DNA of 64,000 nucleotides from Leptolyngbyaceae cyanobacterium (GTDB lineage Bacteria; Cyanobacteriota; Cyanobacteriia; Phormidesmidales; Phormidesmidaceae). The stretch covers positions 10,235-74,234 of the forward strand of contig JBHJHA010000060.1 of NCBI GenBank assembly GCA_050331235.1, read 5' to 3'. The translations under genes and the position numbers were made by a program. This document shows positions 10,028 through 49,574 of the stretch, in pieces. Below the pieces are notes generated by a model that saw only the letters and a program-made list of their open reading frames with translations, was not told the DNA's origin and made no database searches. How positions within the stretch are numbered: position 1 is the first letter of the stretch; every line of letters starts with the position of its first letter.

Positions 10028-11212
10028 ATGATTCTCGTTTGGGGGCTAGGGGCGATCGCGCTACTGGTATTGGGTGTTTATAGCTGGCTGGAATGGCAGT
10101 ATCGACAACGGGCGGGCAACCACCTCACCTTTGCAGCGGGCCAGTGGAATATTGAGCAATACGAGCCCACTCGATATCAGATTGTCGGCATTCCAGAGTT
10201 GATCAACCGCACCCCGGCATCGGAAATCATGGTGCCAGAGCTGTCGGCTGAAACGACCCTACTGGCTAAGGGCAGTGTGGCAGAGATTCAAGTCAATTTG
10301 ACGATTACTCCCCAACATCCTGATGCGGAGCCGCGCTCAGACGGCTACTGGTTTGCCTACATTGTCAAGTTACGCAAGCGGACTCAGTTCAAGGTCACCG
10401 TCGATATCACTGGAGCTGACCTGCGATCGCTCAAAGCCTTGTGGGTGCGCGTTCACTACTTGACCTATGGCCCTGGCGGTCGGTTGCCTAAAACCGGACA
10501 TGTCATTGTCCCGCTGAAATTTCCTGACCCGGCGATGACGCCAGCCTGGCGGGAAACACCCCAGGCTCAAGTGCTACCAGTCCCCACCCATCTGCTTACG
10601 CACCTTGACACCCCCATCGAAGTCATCGAGCGGTATGTGTCTACGCACGCTACGCCTGGCGATATCATCACCTTGGGAGAGACCCCGCTGGCCATTATGC
10701 AGGGGCGCTGGCGGCATCCCTCTACTGTTCAACCGGGATGGTTGGCTAAGCGGCTATGTTATTACTTCTTGCCGACCTCCAGCTTGGCCACTGCCTGTGG
10801 TCTCCAGACATTAGTCGATCTCGTTGGGGCTTGGCGGGTCTTGTTTGCCTTCGTCGGCGGAGCACTGAAAAAGGCAATTTTGCGCCAGGGCGGCGGATTT
10901 TATCAGCTAGCTGGCGAGCAAGCGCGGCTAATCGACGATGTTACAGGCACCCTACCGCCCTACGATCAATTTATCGTGCTTGGGCCTGAGGACCCCCAGC
11001 AAGTCGTTGACGAAATTGAAAAGGCAACGGGTCTGGGCGCAGCGATCGTTGATGTAAATGATCTGAAGGCAGTCAAGATTGTTGCTGCTAGCCCCAAGGT
11101 CAACCGGGCGGTAGTCACTCAGGCCCTTATTGACAATCCGGCGGGTAATGCCGACGAACAAACGCCTCTAGTGTTGGTGAGACCCGGCGAAAAGCCACGG
11201 AGAAATTCTTAG
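10028..11212 (+). CDS. Membrane-anchored protein with C-terminal F420-0:gamma-glutamyl ligase (CofE)-like domain
   Basis: N-terminal TM helix; C-terminal THLLT..GETPLAIMQGR..IDDVTGTLPPYD..IVDVNDL..DNPAGNADEQTP. Confidence 0.7.
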   Translation: MILVWGLGAIALLVLGVYSWLEWQYRQRAGNHLTFAAGQWNIEQYEPTRYQIVGIPELINRTPASEIMVPELSAETTLLAKGSVAEIQVNLTITPQHPDAEPRSDGYWFAYIVKLRKRTQFKVTVDITGADLRSLKALWVRVHYLTYGPGGRLPKTGHVIVPLKFPDPAMTPAWRETPQAQVLPVPTHLLTHLDTPIEVIERYVSTHATPGDIITLGETPLAIMQGRWRHPSTVQPGWLAKRLCYYFLPTSSLATACGLQTLVDLVGAWRVLFAFVGGALKKAILRQGGGFYQLAGEQARLIDDVTGTLPPYDQFIVLGPEDPQQVVDEIEKATGLGAAIVDVNDLKAVKIVAASPKVNRAVVTQALIDNPAGNADEQTPLVLVRPGEKPRRNS

Positions 11213-41439: not shown

Positions 41440-42423
41440 ATGGTCAATCAGGTAGAGCAGGAAAAGGATACAGATATTGGGTTTACCCATGACGATTTTG
41501 CAGCACTGTTAGATAAGTACGATTATCACTTCAGCCCGGGTGATACCGTTGCTGGCACAGTTTTCAGCTTGGAGCCCCGAGGCGCACTCATCGATATCGG
41601 TGCTAAAACTGCCGCCTACATCCCTATCCAGGAGATGTCGATTAACCGTGTGGAAGATCCTGACGAAGTTTTGCAATCCGACGAAACTCGGGAATTCTTC
41701 ATTCTCACTGACGAAAACGAAGATGGACAGTTAACTCTCTCCATTCGTCGCATTGAATATATGCGGGCTTGGGAACGCGTGCGTCAGCTGCAGGCCGAAG
41801 ATGCCACCGTCCGTTCTGAGGTGTTTGCCACTAACCGAGGCGGCGCACTGGTTCGCATCGAAGGGTTGCGGGGCTTTATTCCAGGCTCTCACATCAGCAC
41901 TCGCAAACCGAAGGAAGACTTGGTCGCTGAAGAGCTGCCCCTCAAGTTCTTGGAAGTGGACGAGGAGCGTAATCGGCTTGTCCTCAGCCATCGCCGAGCG
42001 CTTGTGGAGCGTAAGATGAATGGCTTGGAAGTTGGCGAGGTTGTGTTGGGTACTGTTCGTGGCTTGAAGCCCTACGGTGCTTTTATCGACATCGGCGGTG
42101 TCAGCGGTTTGCTGCACATCTCGGAAATTTCTCATGATCACATCGACACGCCCCACAGCGTCTTCAACGTGAATGACGAAATCAAAGTCATGATCATTGA
42201 TCTCGATGCTGAGCGGGGACGGATTTCGCTGTCGACCAAACAGCTGGAGCCTGAGCCTGGCGATATGGTGAAGAACCCCGACTTGGTATTTGACAAGGCG
42301 GAGGAAATGGCTGAGAAGTATCGCGAAGCGATGGCTAAGAAAGCTGAGGAAGAAGCTGCCCAAGCTGCAGGTGAAGAGACCAGCGAATACACTGATGATG
42401 AGTATTCCGCAGTCGAAGAATAA
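41440..42423 (+). CDS. rpsA: 30S ribosomal protein S1 (three S1 domains)
   Basis: GALIDIGAK, GLRGFIPGSH, YGAFIDIGGVSGLLHISEIS. Confidence 0.97.
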   Translation: MVNQVEQEKDTDIGFTHDDFAALLDKYDYHFSPGDTVAGTVFSLEPRGALIDIGAKTAAYIPIQEMSINRVEDPDEVLQSDETREFFILTDENEDGQLTLSIRRIEYMRAWERVRQLQAEDATVRSEVFATNRGGALVRIEGLRGFIPGSHISTRKPKEDLVAEELPLKFLEVDEERNRLVLSHRRALVERKMNGLEVGEVVLGTVRGLKPYGAFIDIGGVSGLLHISEISHDHIDTPHSVFNVNDEIKVMIIDLDAERGRISLSTKQLEPEPGDMVKNPDLVFDKAEEMAEKYREAMAKKAEEEAAQAAGEETSEYTDDEYSAVEE

Positions 42424-42452
42424 GGCCGCAACATTCTGCTTCTAATTACTCT

Positions 42453-42484
42453 GGAGTCACGACTAACGTTGTGGCTCCTTTTTT
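42453..42484 (+). terminator. Intrinsic terminator of rpsA
   Basis: GGAGTCACGAC-TAAC-GTTGTGGCTCC followed by T6. Confidence 0.85.
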
Positions 42485-42568
42485 GTGAGAACTGTGTTTG
42501 GGCTCAACTGAGTTCCTACGGGATAGGCATGTAAAAACGGCTTGCCTGGAACCGTGGACGAGTTGAGA

Positions 42569-43663
42569 CTATCCGCCGTAAATAATGGCGTCAAATAGGA
42601 CGTAGCGCTCTTCACCAATATTGAGAAAGACGCGATCCCCCTGGCGGGTACTGCTAAATGCTCCAGAGCCCCCCTCGACCTGGACGGGATTGCCATTCTC
42701 AAAGTAGACGGTAAAGGTGTTGCCGTACTGGGTGGTGATATCGACATAGCCACTGCCGTTGCCTTCGCGGACGACTCCGAAAGGACACTCTCCGTTGGCC
42801 TCAGCTGGGGTCATAGCGCAGGCGATCGCACCCGTCGCGTTATAGCTGGTGCCTGGGACGATGGCGTCTCCTGGAGAACTGCTTGCTCCCGCATTACCGC
42901 CTCCAGAAATGATCATTTCTAATCGATAGTTGGCTGCTTCCTCGCGGCGGGCGGCACTGCGCATCAAATACACGCGCACTTTGTAATCGCCGGTTTCGGG
43001 CAAGCTGCCTTCGTACTGATTGCCATTGATGGAGCCGTTGAAGATGGCCTCGTCATTGCTGCCGGGGGGCAAAATATTGAAGTAGTTGGCGGTATTGTCA
43101 GTCGCCATGCTGATGTTGGCATACTGACCGGCTTGCGCGTTCAGCACATAATCGATGGTGTTGTAGCCAACGATGGTGGCTTCGACGGTAGCGCTGGTGG
43201 CTCCGGGTTGAAACTGAACACGCTGCTTGGGAATGCCGTCTGAACTAGGCTGGCTACTGACAGGGCCAGAGTTGGATGGCGGTGCAGAGCTGCTTGACTC
43301 TGCTGTAGGTGCGGCCGCAGTTTCTGATGAACTGCCTGATTCGGCGAGAGTACATTCAGTCAATATGATCGCGTTGTTGACCTCAACGACTGCCTTTTCA
43401 CCGTCGATCAGGAGTTTGGTACTGCCATCGCTATAGGTGGTGCCAGAGTCTGACTCGACCAGCGGCAAGGCTAGATTTGGGCGATCGGGCAAATCAGCAA
43501 CCGCTTCATTTGGCGATAGGCGAGCCGTAAACTCGGTACCGCCTTTGCATTGGTACGTTACGAGTGAGCCTTGGCCGGTTGCGGTGTTGGTGTCGGTATT
43601 ACAGCCCAATAAACAAAATGATGTGAGCAAACCAGCACTCACTCGAAAAGATTGGTTCTTCAT
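42569..43663 (-). CDS. Lipoprotein: MliC-like + PliG-like + uncharacterised C-terminal domain
   Basis: Lipobox LLGC; YQC..SDSGTTY..EC (MliC-like); VQFQPG..LPETGDYKVRVYLMRSAARR (PliG-like); C-x10-C tail domain. Confidence 0.8.
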   Translation of the reverse strand: MKNQSFRVSAGLLTSFCLLGCNTDTNTATGQGSLVTYQCKGGTEFTARLSPNEAVADLPDRPNLALPLVESDSGTTYSDGSTKLLIDGEKAVVEVNNAIILTECTLAESGSSSETAAAPTAESSSSAPPSNSGPVSSQPSSDGIPKQRVQFQPGATSATVEATIVGYNTIDYVLNAQAGQYANISMATDNTANYFNILPPGSNDEAIFNGSINGNQYEGSLPETGDYKVRVYLMRSAARREEAANYRLEMIISGGGNAGASSSPGDAIVPGTSYNATGAIACAMTPAEANGECPFGVVREGNGSGYVDITTQYGNTFTVYFENGNPVQVEGGSGAFSSTRQGDRVFLNIGEERYVLFDAIIYGG

Positions 43664-43798
43664 GGGTGTTCTCAGTCTCAAGTTGCTTGTGATCAAACCG
43701 CTAGGGCTCTCACCCAATGCTTGTTATCAGGTGAGAGCCGTCACGCATGACCGGGTTTGCCAGAGCTACCGCAATGGCGTCTACTAGCTTTGGCTTGG

Positions 43799-44398
43799 TT
43801 ACTCAGGCAAGGGTCGATCAATGGTGCTGGCGGGCAATCCAGGCATCAACACTGGACCGTCGCTGGTCATCTCAACTTCGTAAAAAACGCGACTTTCTCG
43901 CGATGCACAGCACAGGGCGTCTTCACGACTGTAGCGGTTGAACGAGGCATCGATAGCGCCATCGCGATAGAGGTTGACGTCAAAGAGGCTACCGTCGGTA
44001 CGGGAGTCCATCAGGTTCGGTGACAGCGTGCCGGCGAATTCACCATCGACGAAGACAAAGGTCTGATAGCTGAAGGGGCGACACATCCCGTCGGCATCAG
44101 CCATGCCAGTGATTACTGTGGTGTCACCAAAGATGTAAGCCGGTCCAGAGAGGGACCATCCCGCCGCTTCAACGAGAGCATCTTCATAGAGTCGGGACTT
44201 ACGAATCGTTTGCTCACACTCTGGCAGGTTGGAAAATTCTGAATTGGGCGCTTGAGGAATTTCGGCACCAGCGACATTCCAGTTGGTGTCGCCGTCGAGC
44301 CAGGTACCGTCTTGGCTGGTTTGGGCTGAGGTGTGGGGCGCTAAGAGCAGAGACGCCAGCACCATAGAGCCAGAAATCAAAGAGACTGTTTTCATCAT
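43799..44398 (-). CDS. Secreted LppP/LprE-like protein
   Basis: Signal peptide; DGMCRP..YQTFVFVDGEFAGTLSP..SRTDG..RY..DALCCAS. Confidence 0.7.
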   Translation of the reverse strand: MMKTVSLISGSMVLASLLLAPHTSAQTSQDGTWLDGDTNWNVAGAEIPQAPNSEFSNLPECEQTIRKSRLYEDALVEAAGWSLSGPAYIFGDTTVITGMADADGMCRPFSYQTFVFVDGEFAGTLSPNLMDSRTDGSLFDVNLYRDGAIDASFNRYSREDALCCASRESRVFYEVEMTSDGPVLMPGLPASTIDRPLPE

Positions 44399-44502
44399 GG
44401 TCGATGTACCTATCGAGGTTTTTGGAAGTGAAGACTGATTGCCCAGCGGCTAAATCCGCTGCTGGGGCATTGCGAAGCCGAAAAATATTAGAGTCTGCGA
44501 CC

Positions 44503-45165
44503 CTAGTCTATGCCCGTCACGACGATTTCATCGAGGCGGAAAAACTCTTCGTCATTGATGTTGATAAAGTACTGACCGTCTAAATACTGGGTTTGCAAAT
44601 TGTCTCCTGGATCAATTGCGTGCAGCGCACCGCCATAAAAGGCCAAGTGGTGCTCAGTGCCCGTGACTCCGTACAGGGTTAGGCTGGAGTTGCCCGGATC
44701 GCCAAAAATGACGTCAGTCTCACACTGGCTGTCGTAGGTGGGGGCCACAATGGAACAGGGCACCCAACCACCCCCACGTTGGGGCTCATTAATAGCAGCA
44801 GTGTTAGCGCTCGTCTCGCCACCGTCCCAGTACACAAAGATCGAGACATCGGCGAGGCGATAGATAGTGCCAATTTCCCCCAGGCCATCTTCGCGTATGG
44901 CTCGTTGCCCATATTGATCGGTATAGGTGTTGGCCTGATTGGGGTCGGGGACCAGTTCGTAGGTGGTCCCATCCTCAAGGGTAAGGGTGACAAAGCCCTG
45001 TCGCTGAGAAAAGGTGCAAGGACCATAGCTAGTGGCGGTATCTTCGCCGATGGGATACACGTCACAGCGGGCTTGGGCCGTATCGGCTCGAGCACTCGTG
45101 GCGAGCCCCACCGTGGCGATCGCGGCGCACAACGATACAGAGAAAGTAGACAAACGAGACATCAT
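44503..45165 (-). CDS. Secreted two-domain hypothetical protein
   Basis: Signal peptide ..ARA; ARCDVYP..PCTFSQRQG domain; C-terminal C-x10-C domain. Confidence 0.75.
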   Translation of the reverse strand: MMSRLSTFSVSLCAAIATVGLATSARADTAQARCDVYPIGEDTATSYGPCTFSQRQGFVTLTLEDGTTYELVPDPNQANTYTDQYGQRAIREDGLGEIGTIYRLADVSIFVYWDGGETSANTAAINEPQRGGGWVPCSIVAPTYDSQCETDVIFGDPGNSSLTLYGVTGTEHHLAFYGGALHAIDPGDNLQTQYLDGQYFININDEEFFRLDEIVVTGID

Positions 45166-45386
45166 AAATTCACTCCTCTACACAAGATATACAGCTGATT
45201 TAGTTAGCCACTGCGACCCGAGCAAGCGATTGAAAACTGAGTTGTAGTTGACCGCTAAGTCAGCTTTTGTTTCCCAACAATCTACTAGAAAAATACCGTG
45301 AGCTGACCTGTCCGCGTCAAAAACAGCGCGTAAACTTTGCCGCCGCAGATAGACAGATAAGACTTCCTCGTAGAGAACGATATCCA

Positions 45387-47378
45387 TCAGTTTTGAGGCA
45401 GTAAAAAGTCAGGTCGTAGAGCCGGTACACAGGTTTGGTTGAGTGGGCGATCGGGCTGGGTGAGAAACTGCTGGATCAGATCTTGAGCACACGGGGAATA
45501 TTGCAGCGTGATGTGTCCTGCACTGGGTAAAAATACAAATTGGCTGTTGCTTAAGGTGTCCGCTGCCAGCCGAGACCAGTTGGCGGGTGTCTGGGTATCG
45601 TAATGACCCGCTAAGACCAGCGTGGCAATGTCGCTGACCACAGGTGCTTGTTCGATCGCATCCGGCGTCCCCGCAGCGAAGCCATCGCAAATGGCAAAGT
45701 AACTCGCCACCGTATCAAACGGGCGACGGAGCGGCACTAGTGGCAGCGCCTGATAATAGGCCCAAGCCTGGCTCAGATCTTCGAAGGGCACTTCCTCCTG
45801 GCACTGGACGGCATAGTGCATCCCTTCGGCAATTTCGCCATAAAAGCGCGGCAGGGGTAGATCGGCGATCGCCAATGCAGAAAAAATGGCGTCTACATCG
45901 GCCTGACTCAGCTCCATCGTCAACGACATCAGGGATGCCGGTGGCGGCGCTTCCAGCGACAACCCAAAGTTGAGGAAATTGAGCAGTAGCGTCTGGGTCT
46001 GAGGTACGTCGTGGCGGCCCATGAGCGAGAGCAAATATTCCGCTAAGTAAAGCCCGCCAGGGGAACGGCGATCGCTGATTTCCTGATACACCTGGGCCAG
46101 CCACTGATCGGCCAATGGCTGCCCCGTCGTCGGTGGATCGGCCAGCGGTGGAGTGCGATCGGTGGGCGCTGCTTCAGTCGGAGCGTTAATGATTTGCTCG
46201 ATGTAGGTGGTGCCGTCTCCCTGGCTAAATTCCTGCAGGATCAGGGGCAGGGTGGCGGCGAGCTGCGGGTTGCGATTGAGGCGCCCAAACAATTCAGCGA
46301 CAGTGTCGGCATTGACTATGATGGGCTCCGGTGCACTGCTAGCTAAAGTCAGCGGCGTCTGATCTAAGGTAGCGGCCAACGCTAAATAGGTGCTCCGCAG
46401 GTGAGGAAAGGCGGCATGGCAGGCTGCGTCCGTCTCGCAGTCGGTGAAAAACTGTTCGGCGGCGATCGCCGCCAGCCCCGGGGTGAACTCATTGGAATCG
46501 ATGTTAGGCGGCTCAACCGAATCTAAAATCACGCTGCGGATGCCGCTATCGGGAAAATCGCGCATGACCGTCAGCGCCAACCGCGTTCCGTAGGAAACGC
46601 CCAGCAGATTGTACTGGTCGTAGCCTAGCGCCTGTACCAACGCCACAACATCGGCAGCACTGCGTTGACTGTTGTATTGAGCTAAGTCAACCCCGCGATC
46701 ACGCCAAAACTGGCTGCACTGCTGTAGCGAGCTGTAGCGAGGCAGTTGGCGATATTGGGCGACGTATTCCGCCGGGGTAGTCGCAACTTGAGGGTCAATA
46801 GCTGCAGCTACCACCAACTGGGTAAACACCGTCAAAAAGTCATCAATACTGCCACCGGCTTCGAGTAGAGGTAAGACTGCCGGTGTGTAGCAGTCGAGAG
46901 CCTCAGAAAAGGCGGTGCCGCGCTGGGCGATCAAAACCACATCCCGTTCAGCGCGAATGTCGCTGAGCCAGTCGGCGTAGCTGTGTACTGCATAAAAAGG
47001 ACTGCCGCCGGGACCGCCCTCGAGCCACACCACCGGATCAGCGGCGGGGCGATCGCCCGTGGCATGCAACACCAGATAAGACACCTGTATGGAGCGGCTG
47101 GTGTCTGGCTGCTCCCAGTTTTCCGGCACGGTTAGCTGACCGCAGGAGACTGCTCCCAAGTCACTGATATCTACCGGACAGTCAATGGAGCTCAGGCTGG
47201 TTGACGCCCATGCCGTTGAGGTTTCTGGGAGATTGGCTGCCCCCAATACTCCGCTGATTAGCAAGCTGGGCCAGCCCAGCCGCGCCATCCATCCTAAGGG
47301 CGATCGCACTTGCTTTGAGCCTCCGGTAAACGCGTTCATCGCGGGATCTGGTGGACGCTGCCGCCGATCGGGGGACAC
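45387..47378 (-). CDS. Exported alpha/beta hydrolase (TAP-like peptidase)
   Basis: CGQLTVPE, LEGGPGG, nucleophile GVSYGT, YDTQTP, AGHITL; true start uncertain. Confidence 0.85.
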   Translation of the reverse strand: MSPDRRQRPPDPAMNAFTGGSKQVRSPLGWMARLGWPSLLISGVLGAANLPETSTAWASTSLSSIDCPVDISDLGAVSCGQLTVPENWEQPDTSRSIQVSYLVLHATGDRPAADPVVWLEGGPGGSPFYAVHSYADWLSDIRAERDVVLIAQRGTAFSEALDCYTPAVLPLLEAGGSIDDFLTVFTQLVVAAAIDPQVATTPAEYVAQYRQLPRYSSLQQCSQFWRDRGVDLAQYNSQRSAADVVALVQALGYDQYNLLGVSYGTRLALTVMRDFPDSGIRSVILDSVEPPNIDSNEFTPGLAAIAAEQFFTDCETDAACHAAFPHLRSTYLALAATLDQTPLTLASSAPEPIIVNADTVAELFGRLNRNPQLAATLPLILQEFSQGDGTTYIEQIINAPTEAAPTDRTPPLADPPTTGQPLADQWLAQVYQEISDRRSPGGLYLAEYLLSLMGRHDVPQTQTLLLNFLNFGLSLEAPPPASLMSLTMELSQADVDAIFSALAIADLPLPRFYGEIAEGMHYAVQCQEEVPFEDLSQAWAYYQALPLVPLRRPFDTVASYFAICDGFAAGTPDAIEQAPVVSDIATLVLAGHYDTQTPANWSRLAADTLSNSQFVFLPSAGHITLQYSPCAQDLIQQFLTQPDRPLNQTCVPALRPDFLLPQN

Positions 47379-47511
47379 CCGCTATCTCTCCACCCCGCCA
47401 TCTCAGCTCAACCTACCATGAGCTATTGCGGGTTGAGGCGGTTCTCAAAAAGCTGGAAGCTAGCAGCGAATTGCCCTATGTTGTAAGGCGACTCAGCGAT
47501 CGCAATTAGTC

Positions 47512-48630
47512 ATGATTCAGGCTTATTTGGTGCCCATCGAGGAGGCCGCTTTCGTTTTCTTTGGGCTGGCGGTGCTGCTGCTCATCCCCATTTGCGCAGT
47601 GCACTATCGGCGGTTTGGCTACGTTATGCCGTCCCGCGCTACGGTGTTTTATTCGCTGCTGTTTTACAGTCTGTGTGCGGTTTTTTTAGTGAGTCTGCCG
47701 CTGCCGACGATCACGGCGGACTTTTGCGAGGTGCATACTCTGGCGCGTCAGGTGCGCCTTACCCCATTTCAGTTTGTGCCCGACATCATTTTGGGGAACC
47801 AAATTACCCTGCGGCATTTCAACCTGATTTCGATGTTGGTGAGCTCGGTGTTCCTCCAGGCGTTTTTCAACTTTTTGCTATTGATGCCGCTGGGCTTTTA
47901 CCTGCGGTATTACTTCAATTTGGGGTGGGGAGGAGCTGCTGCGATCGCCCTCGCGGTGACGGGACTGTTTGAGCTATCGCAAATCACGGGGTTGTTTGGC
48001 TTCTATCCCTGTCCCTATCGCACCTTTGATGTGGATGATCTTATTCTCAATACCGCTGGGGCTTTGGTGGGTTACGGGACGATGCCGTTTTTCAGTGCCC
48101 ATCTGCCCAATCTGCAGGCGCGCCATGCGCCGCCGGTAGCCGTGTCTTGTGGGCGACGGTGGGTGGCGTTTGCTGTGGACTGGTTTTTGGCTAACAGTGT
48201 GTCTCGGCTGCTGGGGGCGCTGCTGCTTGGGCTGCATACGCCCCATGCACTTTGGCTGGACGGCTTGGTGTATGGTCTGTGGTTTGTCGGGGTGCCGAGT
48301 TTGTGGCAGGGGCGCACCGTGGGCAAAGCGCTGGTTAATATTCAGCTTGTGCAGTCTTCTGGGCAACCGGTGCAGCTGAGTCAACTGGCACTGCGTTATG
48401 GATTGTTGCTGGGGCTGCCAGTGCTTACGGAGGTGGCGTTGCTGCATCAGTTATCAGAGCAACAGAGAGGATGGATCACGATCTCGCTCTTGATACTTCT
48501 AGTTCTAGAGGCGATCGCGCTAGCTGGCCTCATGCTGGTTCGCCCAGACCATCGGGGACTACATGATCTCATGGCTGACACTCATCATCACGTTCTCGCA
48601 TCCCGCCAGCAAAATACCGTCAGCCTCTAA
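47512..48630 (+). CDS. VanZ + RDD domain membrane protein
   Basis: FNFLLLMPLG, FELSQITG..YRTFDVDDLILNTAG (VanZ); RRWVAFAVD, TVGK, GLHDLMADT (RDD). Confidence 0.88.
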   Translation: MIQAYLVPIEEAAFVFFGLAVLLLIPICAVHYRRFGYVMPSRATVFYSLLFYSLCAVFLVSLPLPTITADFCEVHTLARQVRLTPFQFVPDIILGNQITLRHFNLISMLVSSVFLQAFFNFLLLMPLGFYLRYYFNLGWGGAAAIALAVTGLFELSQITGLFGFYPCPYRTFDVDDLILNTAGALVGYGTMPFFSAHLPNLQARHAPPVAVSCGRRWVAFAVDWFLANSVSRLLGALLLGLHTPHALWLDGLVYGLWFVGVPSLWQGRTVGKALVNIQLVQSSGQPVQLSQLALRYGLLLGLPVLTEVALLHQLSEQQRGWITISLLILLVLEAIALAGLMLVRPDHRGLHDLMADTHHHVLASRQQNTVSL

Positions 48631-48830
48631 GGCGACATACCTGATGTAGGGCTCTTGCCTGTGAAGAGGTTGCTCGATTTTGGTCAGTGCCTTGGGCCAG
48701 ACTTTATGACTTGGGCATCAACTCAGAGATCGCCAGCGCTATGTCAGAAACTAAGGCAGATTTCAGCGTATCCGTTGCGGTATGAATCGGGTCTTTACGG
48801 TAAGAGAATATTGCTCAGCAAGGAGGCGAG

Positions 48831-49574
48831 GTGTTTACAGTTCACTGTCAGGGTGTGCGATTTGAGGCGATCTCAGCCATCCTGTGGGATAAAGACGGTA
48901 CCTTAGCCGACTCCCACAGCTTTTTAAGGACTTTGGCAGAGCGGCGATCGCGCCTGCTCGATCAGCACGTGCCCGGCGTTTATGCCCAGCTTATGGCAGC
49001 CTTTGGCTGTGGGGAAGTACAGTATGATCCCGCCGGTTTGATGGCGGTTGGCACCCGCTATGACAATGAAGTGGCCGCCGCCACCCTAGTAGCGATGACA
49101 GGAAGGCCCTGGGCAGACGCTTTGGCGCTGGCTCAAGATGTCTTTGTTGAGAGCGATCGCAGTTTGTCTCACAAAGCCCCTCTAACGCCTCCCCTGCCTG
49201 ATATTCCTCCACTGCTCACAGCGCTGCAGCAAATGGGACTGAAACAGGCAATTTTGTCCGGCGACACCACCCAAAATATTCAAGATTTTGTTGCCCACTA
49301 TCAACTAGAGGCGGCGATCGCCTGGTGCGCCGGCAGTAAGGTGCCCCCTGGTAAGCCCGATCCTCAGATGGTGCGAACCGCCTGTGTAAAACTGGGAGTG
49401 CAGCCTGATCAGTGTTTGGTTGTGGGGGACTCTGGTTTGGACCTGCAGCTGGCGCGAAATGCTGGTTGTGGCGGATTCGTCAGTGTGACCTGGGGCGGCA
49501 GTCCGGCGATTGTGGGAGCTGATGCCGTGTTGACCCACCCGCAGCAGTGGCAATGCGAACCGTCTCCAACCTAG
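48831..49574 (+). CDS. HAD family hydrolase (phosphoglycolate phosphatase-like)
   Basis: WDKDGTL, LSGD, KPDP, VVGDSGLD. Confidence 0.88.
   Translation: MFTVHCQGVRFEAISAILWDKDGTLADSHSFLRTLAERRSRLLDQHVPGVYAQLMAAFGCGEVQYDPAGLMAVGTRYDNEVAAATLVAMTGRPWADALALAQDVFVESDRSLSHKAPLTPPLPDIPPLLTALQQMGLKQAILSGDTTQNIQDFVAHYQLEAAIAWCAGSKVPPGKPDPQMVRTACVKLGVQPDQCLVVGDSGLDLQLARNAGCGGFVSVTWGGSPAIVGADAVLTHPQQWQCEPSPT

Follow-up and report, generated by a model that had tools for sequence, protein, structure and literature searches.

Two lysozyme-inhibitor-like domains on one lipoprotein in a putative wall-protection gene cluster of a mat cyanobacterium

Bacterial lysozyme inhibitors have been studied almost only in animal-associated proteobacteria. 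The systems closest to the locus analyzed here are the inhibitors PliG (with solved structures from Aeromonas, 4dzg, E. coli, 4dy3/4g9s, and Salmonella, 4dy5), MliC/PliC (PF09864) and PliI (PF16743); the MliC family has already been noted in Cyanobacteria, most of its members being described as single-domain proteins (PMC2267010). Here we describe a 6.2-kb islet of five genes located between rpsA and the gene for a HAD phosphatase in a window of 64,000 nucleotides (the whole stretch of DNA that was analyzed; positions 10,235 to 74,234 of contig JBHJHA010000060.1) from a Leptolyngbyaceae cyanobacterium. Its arrangement may resemble that of polyimmunity loci or orphan immunity islands, in which protective modules without a cognate toxin stand in tandem, are reshuffled and are prone to fusion. 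In contrast to such loci, the modules of the islet are of the lysozyme-inhibitor type, and no toxin-immunity family was found among the Pfam matches of the islet proteins, two domains of which are unnamed. Because one islet lipoprotein fuses look-alikes of two lysozyme inhibitors, the gene group likely protects the wall from wall-cutting enzymes, and we consider it somewhat probable that the islet represents an accessory wall-protection cluster centred on muramidase-inhibitor modules.

The lipoprotein (364 amino acids; 42569..43663, minus strand) shows an LLGC lipobox with Cys21 and comprises three domains, all on the minus strand: an MliC/PliC-fold domain recognized by Pfam, fold and motifs (residues 30-108; 43340..43576), a PliG-like domain recognized by sequence and fold (residues 142-253; 42905..43240), and a cysteine-containing beta domain recognized by hhalign that has no Pfam match and is here termed DomBC (residues 264-364; 42572..42874). 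In the structural model, which has a predicted local distance difference test score (pLDDT) of 81, these domains are joined by low-confidence linkers. The PliG-like domain is similar in fold to the solved PliG proteins named above at 26-38% identity, and is closest to Aeromonas PliG both in sequence (4dzg; E 7.9e-16, 38% identity) and in structure (Z 18.2, root-mean-square deviation (rmsd) 1.5 over 110 residues, with the next non-PliG fold at 12.4); a comparison of the model with a PliG structure gave a template-modelling (TM) score of 0.88 and an rmsd of 1.3. It has the conserved Gly-Tyr, [S/T]GxY and Arg-x-x-Ala-Arg elements in common with PliG. Tyr167, Arg235 and Arg239 align with residues common to the solved PliG proteins, which we take to contact lysozyme and to play a role in inhibition; each of the two arginines is present in 84/84 homologues and the tyrosine in 79/84. 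Two features set this version apart from known PliG: it is flanked by one domain on either side within a lipoprotein of a free-living cyanobacterium, and its SGxY loop reads TGDY (residues 224-227), with threonine in place of the serine found in 72/84 homologues. The PliG mutant structure 4dxz contains Leu-to-Met changes only and is uninformative on the key residues.

The evidence for the MliC domain consists of a Pfam match (PF09864, 25.5 bits versus a cut-off of 22), of structural similarity to PliC (3oe3; Z 11.4, rmsd 1.7 over 75 residues) and of features shared with MliC/PliC, namely the eight-stranded barrel, the lipoprotein anchor and the SGxxY loop. This loop reads SDSGTTY (residues 71-77), in agreement with the motif SxSGxxY as defined in PMC5507604 and PMC8334348, the latter of which terms the SGxxY loop critical. 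The families originally named for the islet were thus confirmed by Pfam for MliC, and likewise for LppP/LprE, TAP-like and VanZ plus RDD; the PliG-like domain was confirmed by sequence and fold.

A second islet gene (44503..45165, minus strand) links the lipoprotein to a much larger family. It encodes a protein of 220 amino acids with a signal-peptide-like start, an N-terminal domain termed DomA (residues 27-114) and a DomBC (residues 128-220), both of them small and of beta structure; neither the protein nor DomA or DomBC has a Pfam match. Its DomBC is homologous to that of the lipoprotein (hhalign probability of 96% for strict profiles and 99.7% for broad ones). A profile of the 220-amino-acid protein retrieved 424 representative proteins at E 0.001, and genome loci of the family were found in cyanobacteria, Melainabacteria and many proteobacteria. 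As a module, DomA is promiscuous: among 94 homologues, 21 carry Pfam PliI and seven SH3, and there are fusions of MliC with DomA (P0266, P0304) and of DomA with PliI and META (P0256). DomBC is fused to PliG and META in other bacteria. Profiles of our own resolved, in a set of 360 proteins that is biased by its two queries, 97 PliG+DomBC, 59 DomA+DomBC, 27 DomA+PliI and 20 MliC+PliG+DomBC architectures. PliI, fused to DomA in many proteobacteria, is also fused to PliG in two cyanobacterial genomes, belonging to two other families (L385:7558-8628, L386:493-1572); it is absent from the islet, and a search of the islet's own genome with a PliI profile found none. The PliG fold and motifs, together with the fusions of DomA to PliI and to MliC, make the anti-lysozyme theme stronger than it had first seemed. 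Direct relationships among the small domains were not significant in hhalign comparisons (DomA versus DomBC, probability at most 64%; either of them versus MliC, at most 12%), a PDB profile search with the 220-amino-acid family found nothing, and an Atlas search returned only unnamed clusters and one MliC cluster at 0.76, which is under the lead threshold. The islet's own genome also encodes a second module pair, DomA+SH3 followed by three copies of a domain D4 (G000:C107:15175-16851), and a weak PliG-like domain in a long open reading frame (ORF; G000:C115:18351-20462).

Members of these families cluster repeatedly in other genomes. We surveyed 150 genomes of the family and scored a pair of genes as linked if they lay within 10 kb, considering only genomes with both genes; linkage by chance is expected at about 0.4% per pair, with the reservation that kin are not independent and that several misses are at contig ends. 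DomA and TAP genes are linked in 4/11 genomes, the lipoprotein and DomA genes in 2/3 and TAP and vanZ genes in 2/3, all far in excess of this expectation; DomA and vanZ genes are linked in 1/3. No linkage was seen between the lipoprotein gene and TAP (0/2) or vanZ (0/1), nor between LppP and vanZ (0/2). The clusters within the family also contain genes for PrsW, CAAX proteases, an amidase and MscS. At the class level, 30 of 350 scanned genomes matched a PliG+DomBC profile, and among the best 16 of these 30 another module gene or a TAP gene is located near the PliG-type gene in five. One genome of another family (G184) combines, within 9 kb, DomA+SH3, two TAP genes, a CAAX protease and a full MliC+PliG+DomBC lipoprotein; a further cluster (G241) consists of LppP, META, PliG+DomBC and PrsW. 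Outside the cyanobacteria, separate PliG-like and DomBC genes lie near DomA+DomBC at 4/80 DomA genome loci, all gammaproteobacterial, and a Pfam-confirmed META neighbour is present at 12/80 (a hand-picked subset was scanned); most of the 80 loci have neither PliG-like or DomBC genes nor META nearby. Among 19 plasmids with a PliG-type match, one has a TAP-like gene directly behind it. This is the conjugative Sulfitobacter plasmid NZ_CP025807.1, on which a helix-turn-helix (HTH) regulator, PliG+SH3 and a TAP-like hydrolase in two frames are encoded together (L339:8031-11950), with a recombinase gene 3 kb beyond. The families thus re-cluster, with changing gene order, in other cyanobacterial families, in purple sulfur bacteria and on a Sulfitobacter plasmid. 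The original prediction had named absence of linkage in other genomes as its refutation, and for most of the genes this is not what we found; it applies largely to LppP. The exact five-gene set was found in no other genome among those examined. The islet is an accessory insertion, as had been proposed, and not a fixed cassette.

The insertion between rpsA and the HAD phosphatase gene is real. In 38 of 50 relatives having both genes at the thresholds used (out of a synteny sample of 60), rpsA and the HAD gene are less than 450 bp apart, which bears out the original statement that rpsA directly precedes this gene in other cyanobacteria; within the genus they are adjacent in 5/9 relatives. In the window, rpsA (ribosomal protein S1; 41440..42423, plus strand; NCBIfam PRK07400, 646 bits versus a cut-off of 460) is followed by an intrinsic terminator with an 11-bp stem and a T run (42453..42484, plus strand), directly behind which the insert begins, and the HAD gene forms the right flank (48831..49574, plus strand). 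A hairpin similar to this terminator is located behind rpsA in relatives G001, G003, G004, G007, G010 and G011. Two of these carry different inserts at the same site, of 1,951 bp in G007 (L031:3902-5384) and 1,380 bp in G011 (L032:3867-4634); each of the three inserts is preceded by this rpsA terminator, so the site is a permissive one. In two other relatives the rpsA-HAD pair is split (G005, L033; G013, L035 and L036), and altogether the site is occupied otherwise or rearranged in 4/9 relatives of the genus. The other inserts are unrelated to the islet and consist of a Uma2 gene and unknown genes. A mis-assembly of the islet was rejected as far as contigs go, as a single contig of 7,542 bp (41479-49020) runs across both junctions; it comes from run X1, possibly the source sample, and the left junction is also bridged by a piece from run X4. 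The runs containing this DNA, all from one study, are labelled stromatolite or microbial mat metagenome, and close homologues of the islet proteins bear Leptolyngbya- and Nodosilinea-type names, by which the host belongs with the filamentous cyanobacteria. An A/G variant at position 49021, within the HAD gene, has about half the depth in run X1 and suggests the presence of two close strains.

Several results weigh against a wall-protection cluster, some of them concerning the function of the modules and others their linkage. The MliC domain differs from described MliC/PliC proteins in being fused to PliG and DomBC and in having lost the YxxxTKG motif of strand 6 (described in PMC5507604), in place of which it reads KLLIDG (residues 83-88). 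Exact SGxxY is present in 10/20 full-length lipoprotein homologues and W-x-KG is retained in 4/20, indicating that this domain is eroding within the genus; we class it as an MliC-fold domain that may work like MliC, and not as a canonical member. For the model of the 220-amino-acid protein (pLDDT 88), Foldseek found no match at E 0.001, and the best structural match was a lipocalin (Z 7.5, rmsd 3.4 over 90 residues); the protein PhiA followed with Z 5.7 and rmsd 2.9 over 77 residues. We rejected the fold search as a means of identification, for it yielded only non-diagnostic barrels and does not thereby demonstrate a new fold. PhiA itself has the MliC fold, and it did not inhibit lysozyme in vitro. 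Fold and fusion therefore do not prove function, and with DomA and DomBC matching only generic barrels, their function is argued from association. A rival reading is that the genes form part of a general network for envelope stress, made up of small periplasmic beta-domains (META, SH3, MliC-fold) with the wall, the surface or partner proteins as their targets, and that the inhibitor folds have been repurposed and no longer block enzymes. Such a network would fit the eroding MliC motifs and the PhiA precedent, META as the commonest gammaproteobacterial neighbour in the hand-picked subset, the SH3 fusions, and the occurrence of the PliG fold in collagen-binding and pre-peptidase domains as well (Z 11-12); according to PMC5105897, lipoprotein-transport stress in E. 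coli elicits a response from mliC and also from hslJ, a META gene. However, the PliG surface residues are invariant over the 84 homologues, and three distinct inhibitor families recur within one fusion network, so we regard repurposing as rather unlikely, if worth serious consideration.

With respect to linkage, LppP and DomA genes are linked in 1/9 genomes, LppP and TAP genes in 0/7 and LppP and lipoprotein genes in 0/3. No module neighbour was found at 11/16 of the best cyanobacterial PliG-type loci, two of which are PliG+PliI fusions, and most proteobacterial DomA+DomBC loci lack an inhibitor neighbour, META being the commonest partner. The TAP gene of the window is not an orthologue of the vanZ-linked TAP genes (at most 35% identity, long branch), and vanZ and TAP are co-oriented in relatives and divergent in the islet. 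In the intergenic regions of the islet no shared upstream motif scored above shuffled sequences, except for one borderline pair out of 15. Taken by themselves, the missing promoter motif, the mostly unlinked LppP, the separate lineage of TAP, and the unrelated inserts and split gene pairs at the same site in relatives could mean that accessory genes with no relation to one another accumulated by chance at this permissive site downstream of rpsA and its terminator. This may hold for LppP alone; for the islet as a whole we give it little credence, as pairs of its genes are linked again at loci other than this one, also beyond the family and the phylum, and as DomBC is common to two islet genes.

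The composition of the islet does not point to a foreign source. Its guanine-plus-cytosine (GC) content is 0.556, compared with 0.529 in the left flank, 0.551 in the right flank and 0.526 in the genome. The part containing the TAP and vanZ genes reaches 0.572, which corresponds to the 97.6th percentile of 1,417 genome tiles; the claim that this part is GC-richer than the flanks is nevertheless weak in view of the right flank and of the native HAD and DUF1802 genes (0.574 and 0.575). The codon usage of the five islet genes falls between the 52nd and 82nd percentile among 2,708 long ORFs of the genome. Neither GC content, the signal of which is weak, nor codon usage, which is native, was accepted as evidence that the islet came from elsewhere. 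HIP1 sites are present inside the islet as had been noted, at normal density (10, versus a genome mean of 8.4 per equal-sized tile), no integrase-sized ORF remains within it, and no terminal repeats or attachment sites bound it. In the absence of an integrase, of terminal repeats and of foreign composition, the islet does not look like a recent mobile island, in agreement with the original view that it is not a very recent arrival. A search for plasmid carriage gave no full-length match for the three islet proteins searched.

Orthologues in the family are patchy. The full-length lipoprotein is found in 3/150 genomes (68-69% identity), LppP in 20/150 (up to 72%), DomA genes in 21/150 plus G011 by a separate search, full-length forms of the 220-amino-acid protein in six (up to 69%), TAP-like genes in 15/150 and VanZ-RDD in 3/150 (56-65%). 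All islet genes but TAP have same-genus orthologues of 56-72% identity at other loci, while the flanking HAD gene shows 62-66% within the genus. These four genes diverge like resident genes and yet occupy other loci in relatives, and were therefore likely gathered from a gene pool of the lineage. TAP has no close orthologue (best 35% over full length) and forms, in a tree of 26 rows, a long branch outside the clade of vanZ-linked TAP proteins, where long-branch placement is unsure. The nearest named non-cyanobacterial relatives of VanZ-RDD are from Chloroflexi (43%), which hints at an older transfer.

As originally described, four of the islet genes are co-oriented on the minus strand and one is divergent. 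The TAP gene (45387..47339, minus strand) encodes an alpha/beta serine hydrolase of 650 amino acids with the Pfam domains Abhydrolase_4 (TAP-like) and Abhydrolase_1. Its nucleophile motif (GxSxG, here GVSYG with Ser249) and C-terminal histidine (His609) are those expected of TAP/Hip1-like serine peptidases, and its best PDB matches are Hip1 structures (E 8e-10). It differs from these peptidases in its length, in a large insert and in belonging to an expanded cyanobacterial subfamily. Among six proteins compared with the PADLOC anti-phage catalogue, the sole match was to a generic TAP-like model. The divergent gene (47512..48630, plus strand) encodes a membrane protein of 372 amino acids with Pfam VanZ and RDD domains and an intact DxDDxxxN motif in helix 4 of VanZ-1 (DVDDLILN). 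It has the same architecture and motif as the VanZ-RDD fusion of the VanZ-1 lipocone group, described as common and enigmatic in PMC12419801, and stands out by its rarity in this family and by the lack of a van cluster, no van genes being among the islet neighbours according to Pfam. Glycopeptide-resistance VanZ models of NCBIfam scored below their cut-offs (19.3 versus 375 for VanZ-F, and 17.3 versus 260 bits). None of the tests run supports the part of the original prediction that concerned defence against peptides or glycopeptides. The LppP/LprE-family gene (43799..44398, minus strand) encodes 199 amino acids with a signal-peptide-like start; Pfam (PF14041, 38.7 bits versus a cut-off of 25) and Atlas (0.97 to its own family) agree on its assignment, a PDB sequence-profile search found no solved relative, and we found no literature of mechanistic use on it. 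LppP had also seemed present in the clusters of G006 and G001 and was rejected there, as those genes carry a different domain, D3b; in G034, D3b and LppP form a fusion. All export signals were judged by eye and hydropathy, that of TAP being the weakest.

If the islet is indeed a wall-protection cluster, it would have been gathered behind the rpsA terminator from a patchy gene pool long resident in the cyanobacterial lineage, and its exported products would protect peptidoglycan chiefly by binding and blocking lysozyme-type enzymes. The membrane-anchored lipoprotein might display its three modules on flexible linkers, with the inhibitor loops facing muramidases that get through the outer membrane once it is damaged. 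Its PliG domain would serve as the plug for goose-type or goose-like muramidases and its partly degenerate MliC domain for chicken-type ones, and the soluble DomA+DomBC protein could add further inhibitor or wall-targeting modules. VanZ-RDD might act on lipid-linked wall precursors, as proposed for VanZ-1 in PMC12419801, or sense their state, and the TAP-like hydrolase might cleave peptide or ester substrates outside the membrane. The attack would come from enzymes that grazers, predatory bacteria or phages produce in the mat community. Lysozymes of the c, g and i types serve animals in digestion (PMC10609593), a plausible selective pressure in a mat. These comparisons lead us to infer inhibition and co-regulation as well as roles for TAP, LppP and VanZ-RDD. 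Wall damage in E. coli induces both mliC and hslJ (PMC3599342), which by analogy fits wall protection and, given their response to lipoprotein-transport stress, a general envelope-stress network alike.

The modules might instead be aimed at the wall hydrolases of the cell itself, and not at foreign enzymes, and regulate them as filaments grow, divide or break. The genome does encode two GH24 lysozymes and one SLT-domain protein, SH3 fusions could bind the wall, and a role in wall or polysaccharide metabolism has been proposed for VanZ-1 (PMC12419801). Such control fits poorly, because GH24 and SLT proteins are near-core (GH24 in 33/36 family genomes) and the islet genes patchy (in 3 to 22 of 150); in addition, the two GH24 proteins have no signal peptide by eye. 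We thus consider regulation of own hydrolases quite improbable. The GH24 enzymes are chromosomal and of the phage type, and have an unnamed N-terminal domain (L390:1225-1929, L391:1459-2163).

Each named family in the islet is already known. For the MliC-PliG fusion, for DomA or DomBC and for clusters of this kind we found no literature in a search that covered few subscription journals. Beyond the wall-protection cluster itself, one may speculate that DomA and DomBC, along with LppP and further unnamed partner domains, represent new muramidase-inhibitor families, and that the loci are modular poly-inhibitor armouries of free-living bacteria, directed against the wall-lytic enzymes of grazers, predators and phages, whose modules are shuffled by fusion and clustering. 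This wider proposal is possible and at present doubtful. The presence of MliC and PliG on a single lipoprotein of a mat cyanobacterium, within a fusion network that includes PliI, suggests an ecological role of lysozyme inhibitors against grazers, predators or phages, and DomA and DomBC are widespread unannotated domains that make direct candidates for new inhibitor families. Should they fail in assays, the islet would be an ordinary accessory cluster of exported proteins.

Further unnamed exported domains without Pfam match travel with the module clusters, namely the tandem repeat D4, D15, D3b and D26 (L128:7357-9291, L164:11243-12811, L126:847-1332, L131:7189-8394), of which D4, D15 and D3b are also fused with DomA, PliG, MliC or LppP. 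Several clusters in the family are headed by a divergent HTH+AAA_35 gene together with an AAA_35+PAS+WD40 gene, a candidate regulator pair (L068:2046-8079, L128:11282-16733, L129, L138, L126, L130). This pair is absent from the islet, and its relatives elsewhere in the same genome show only 39-49% identity. In G012, a HIP1-bounded hairpin element lies upstream of both the DomA+DomBC gene and LppP (L125:9150-9411, L125:10080-10280; score 67, best shuffle 47). In G004 the element occurs once, in front of LppP only and again at this psaB site (L137:6560-6767); these hairpins might be a trace of HIP1-linked gene insertion. Finally, a locus of G098 (L168:154-16610) contains four tandem TAP-like hydrolases along with an amidase, two CAAX proteases, an AIM24-family gene, PrsW and MscS.

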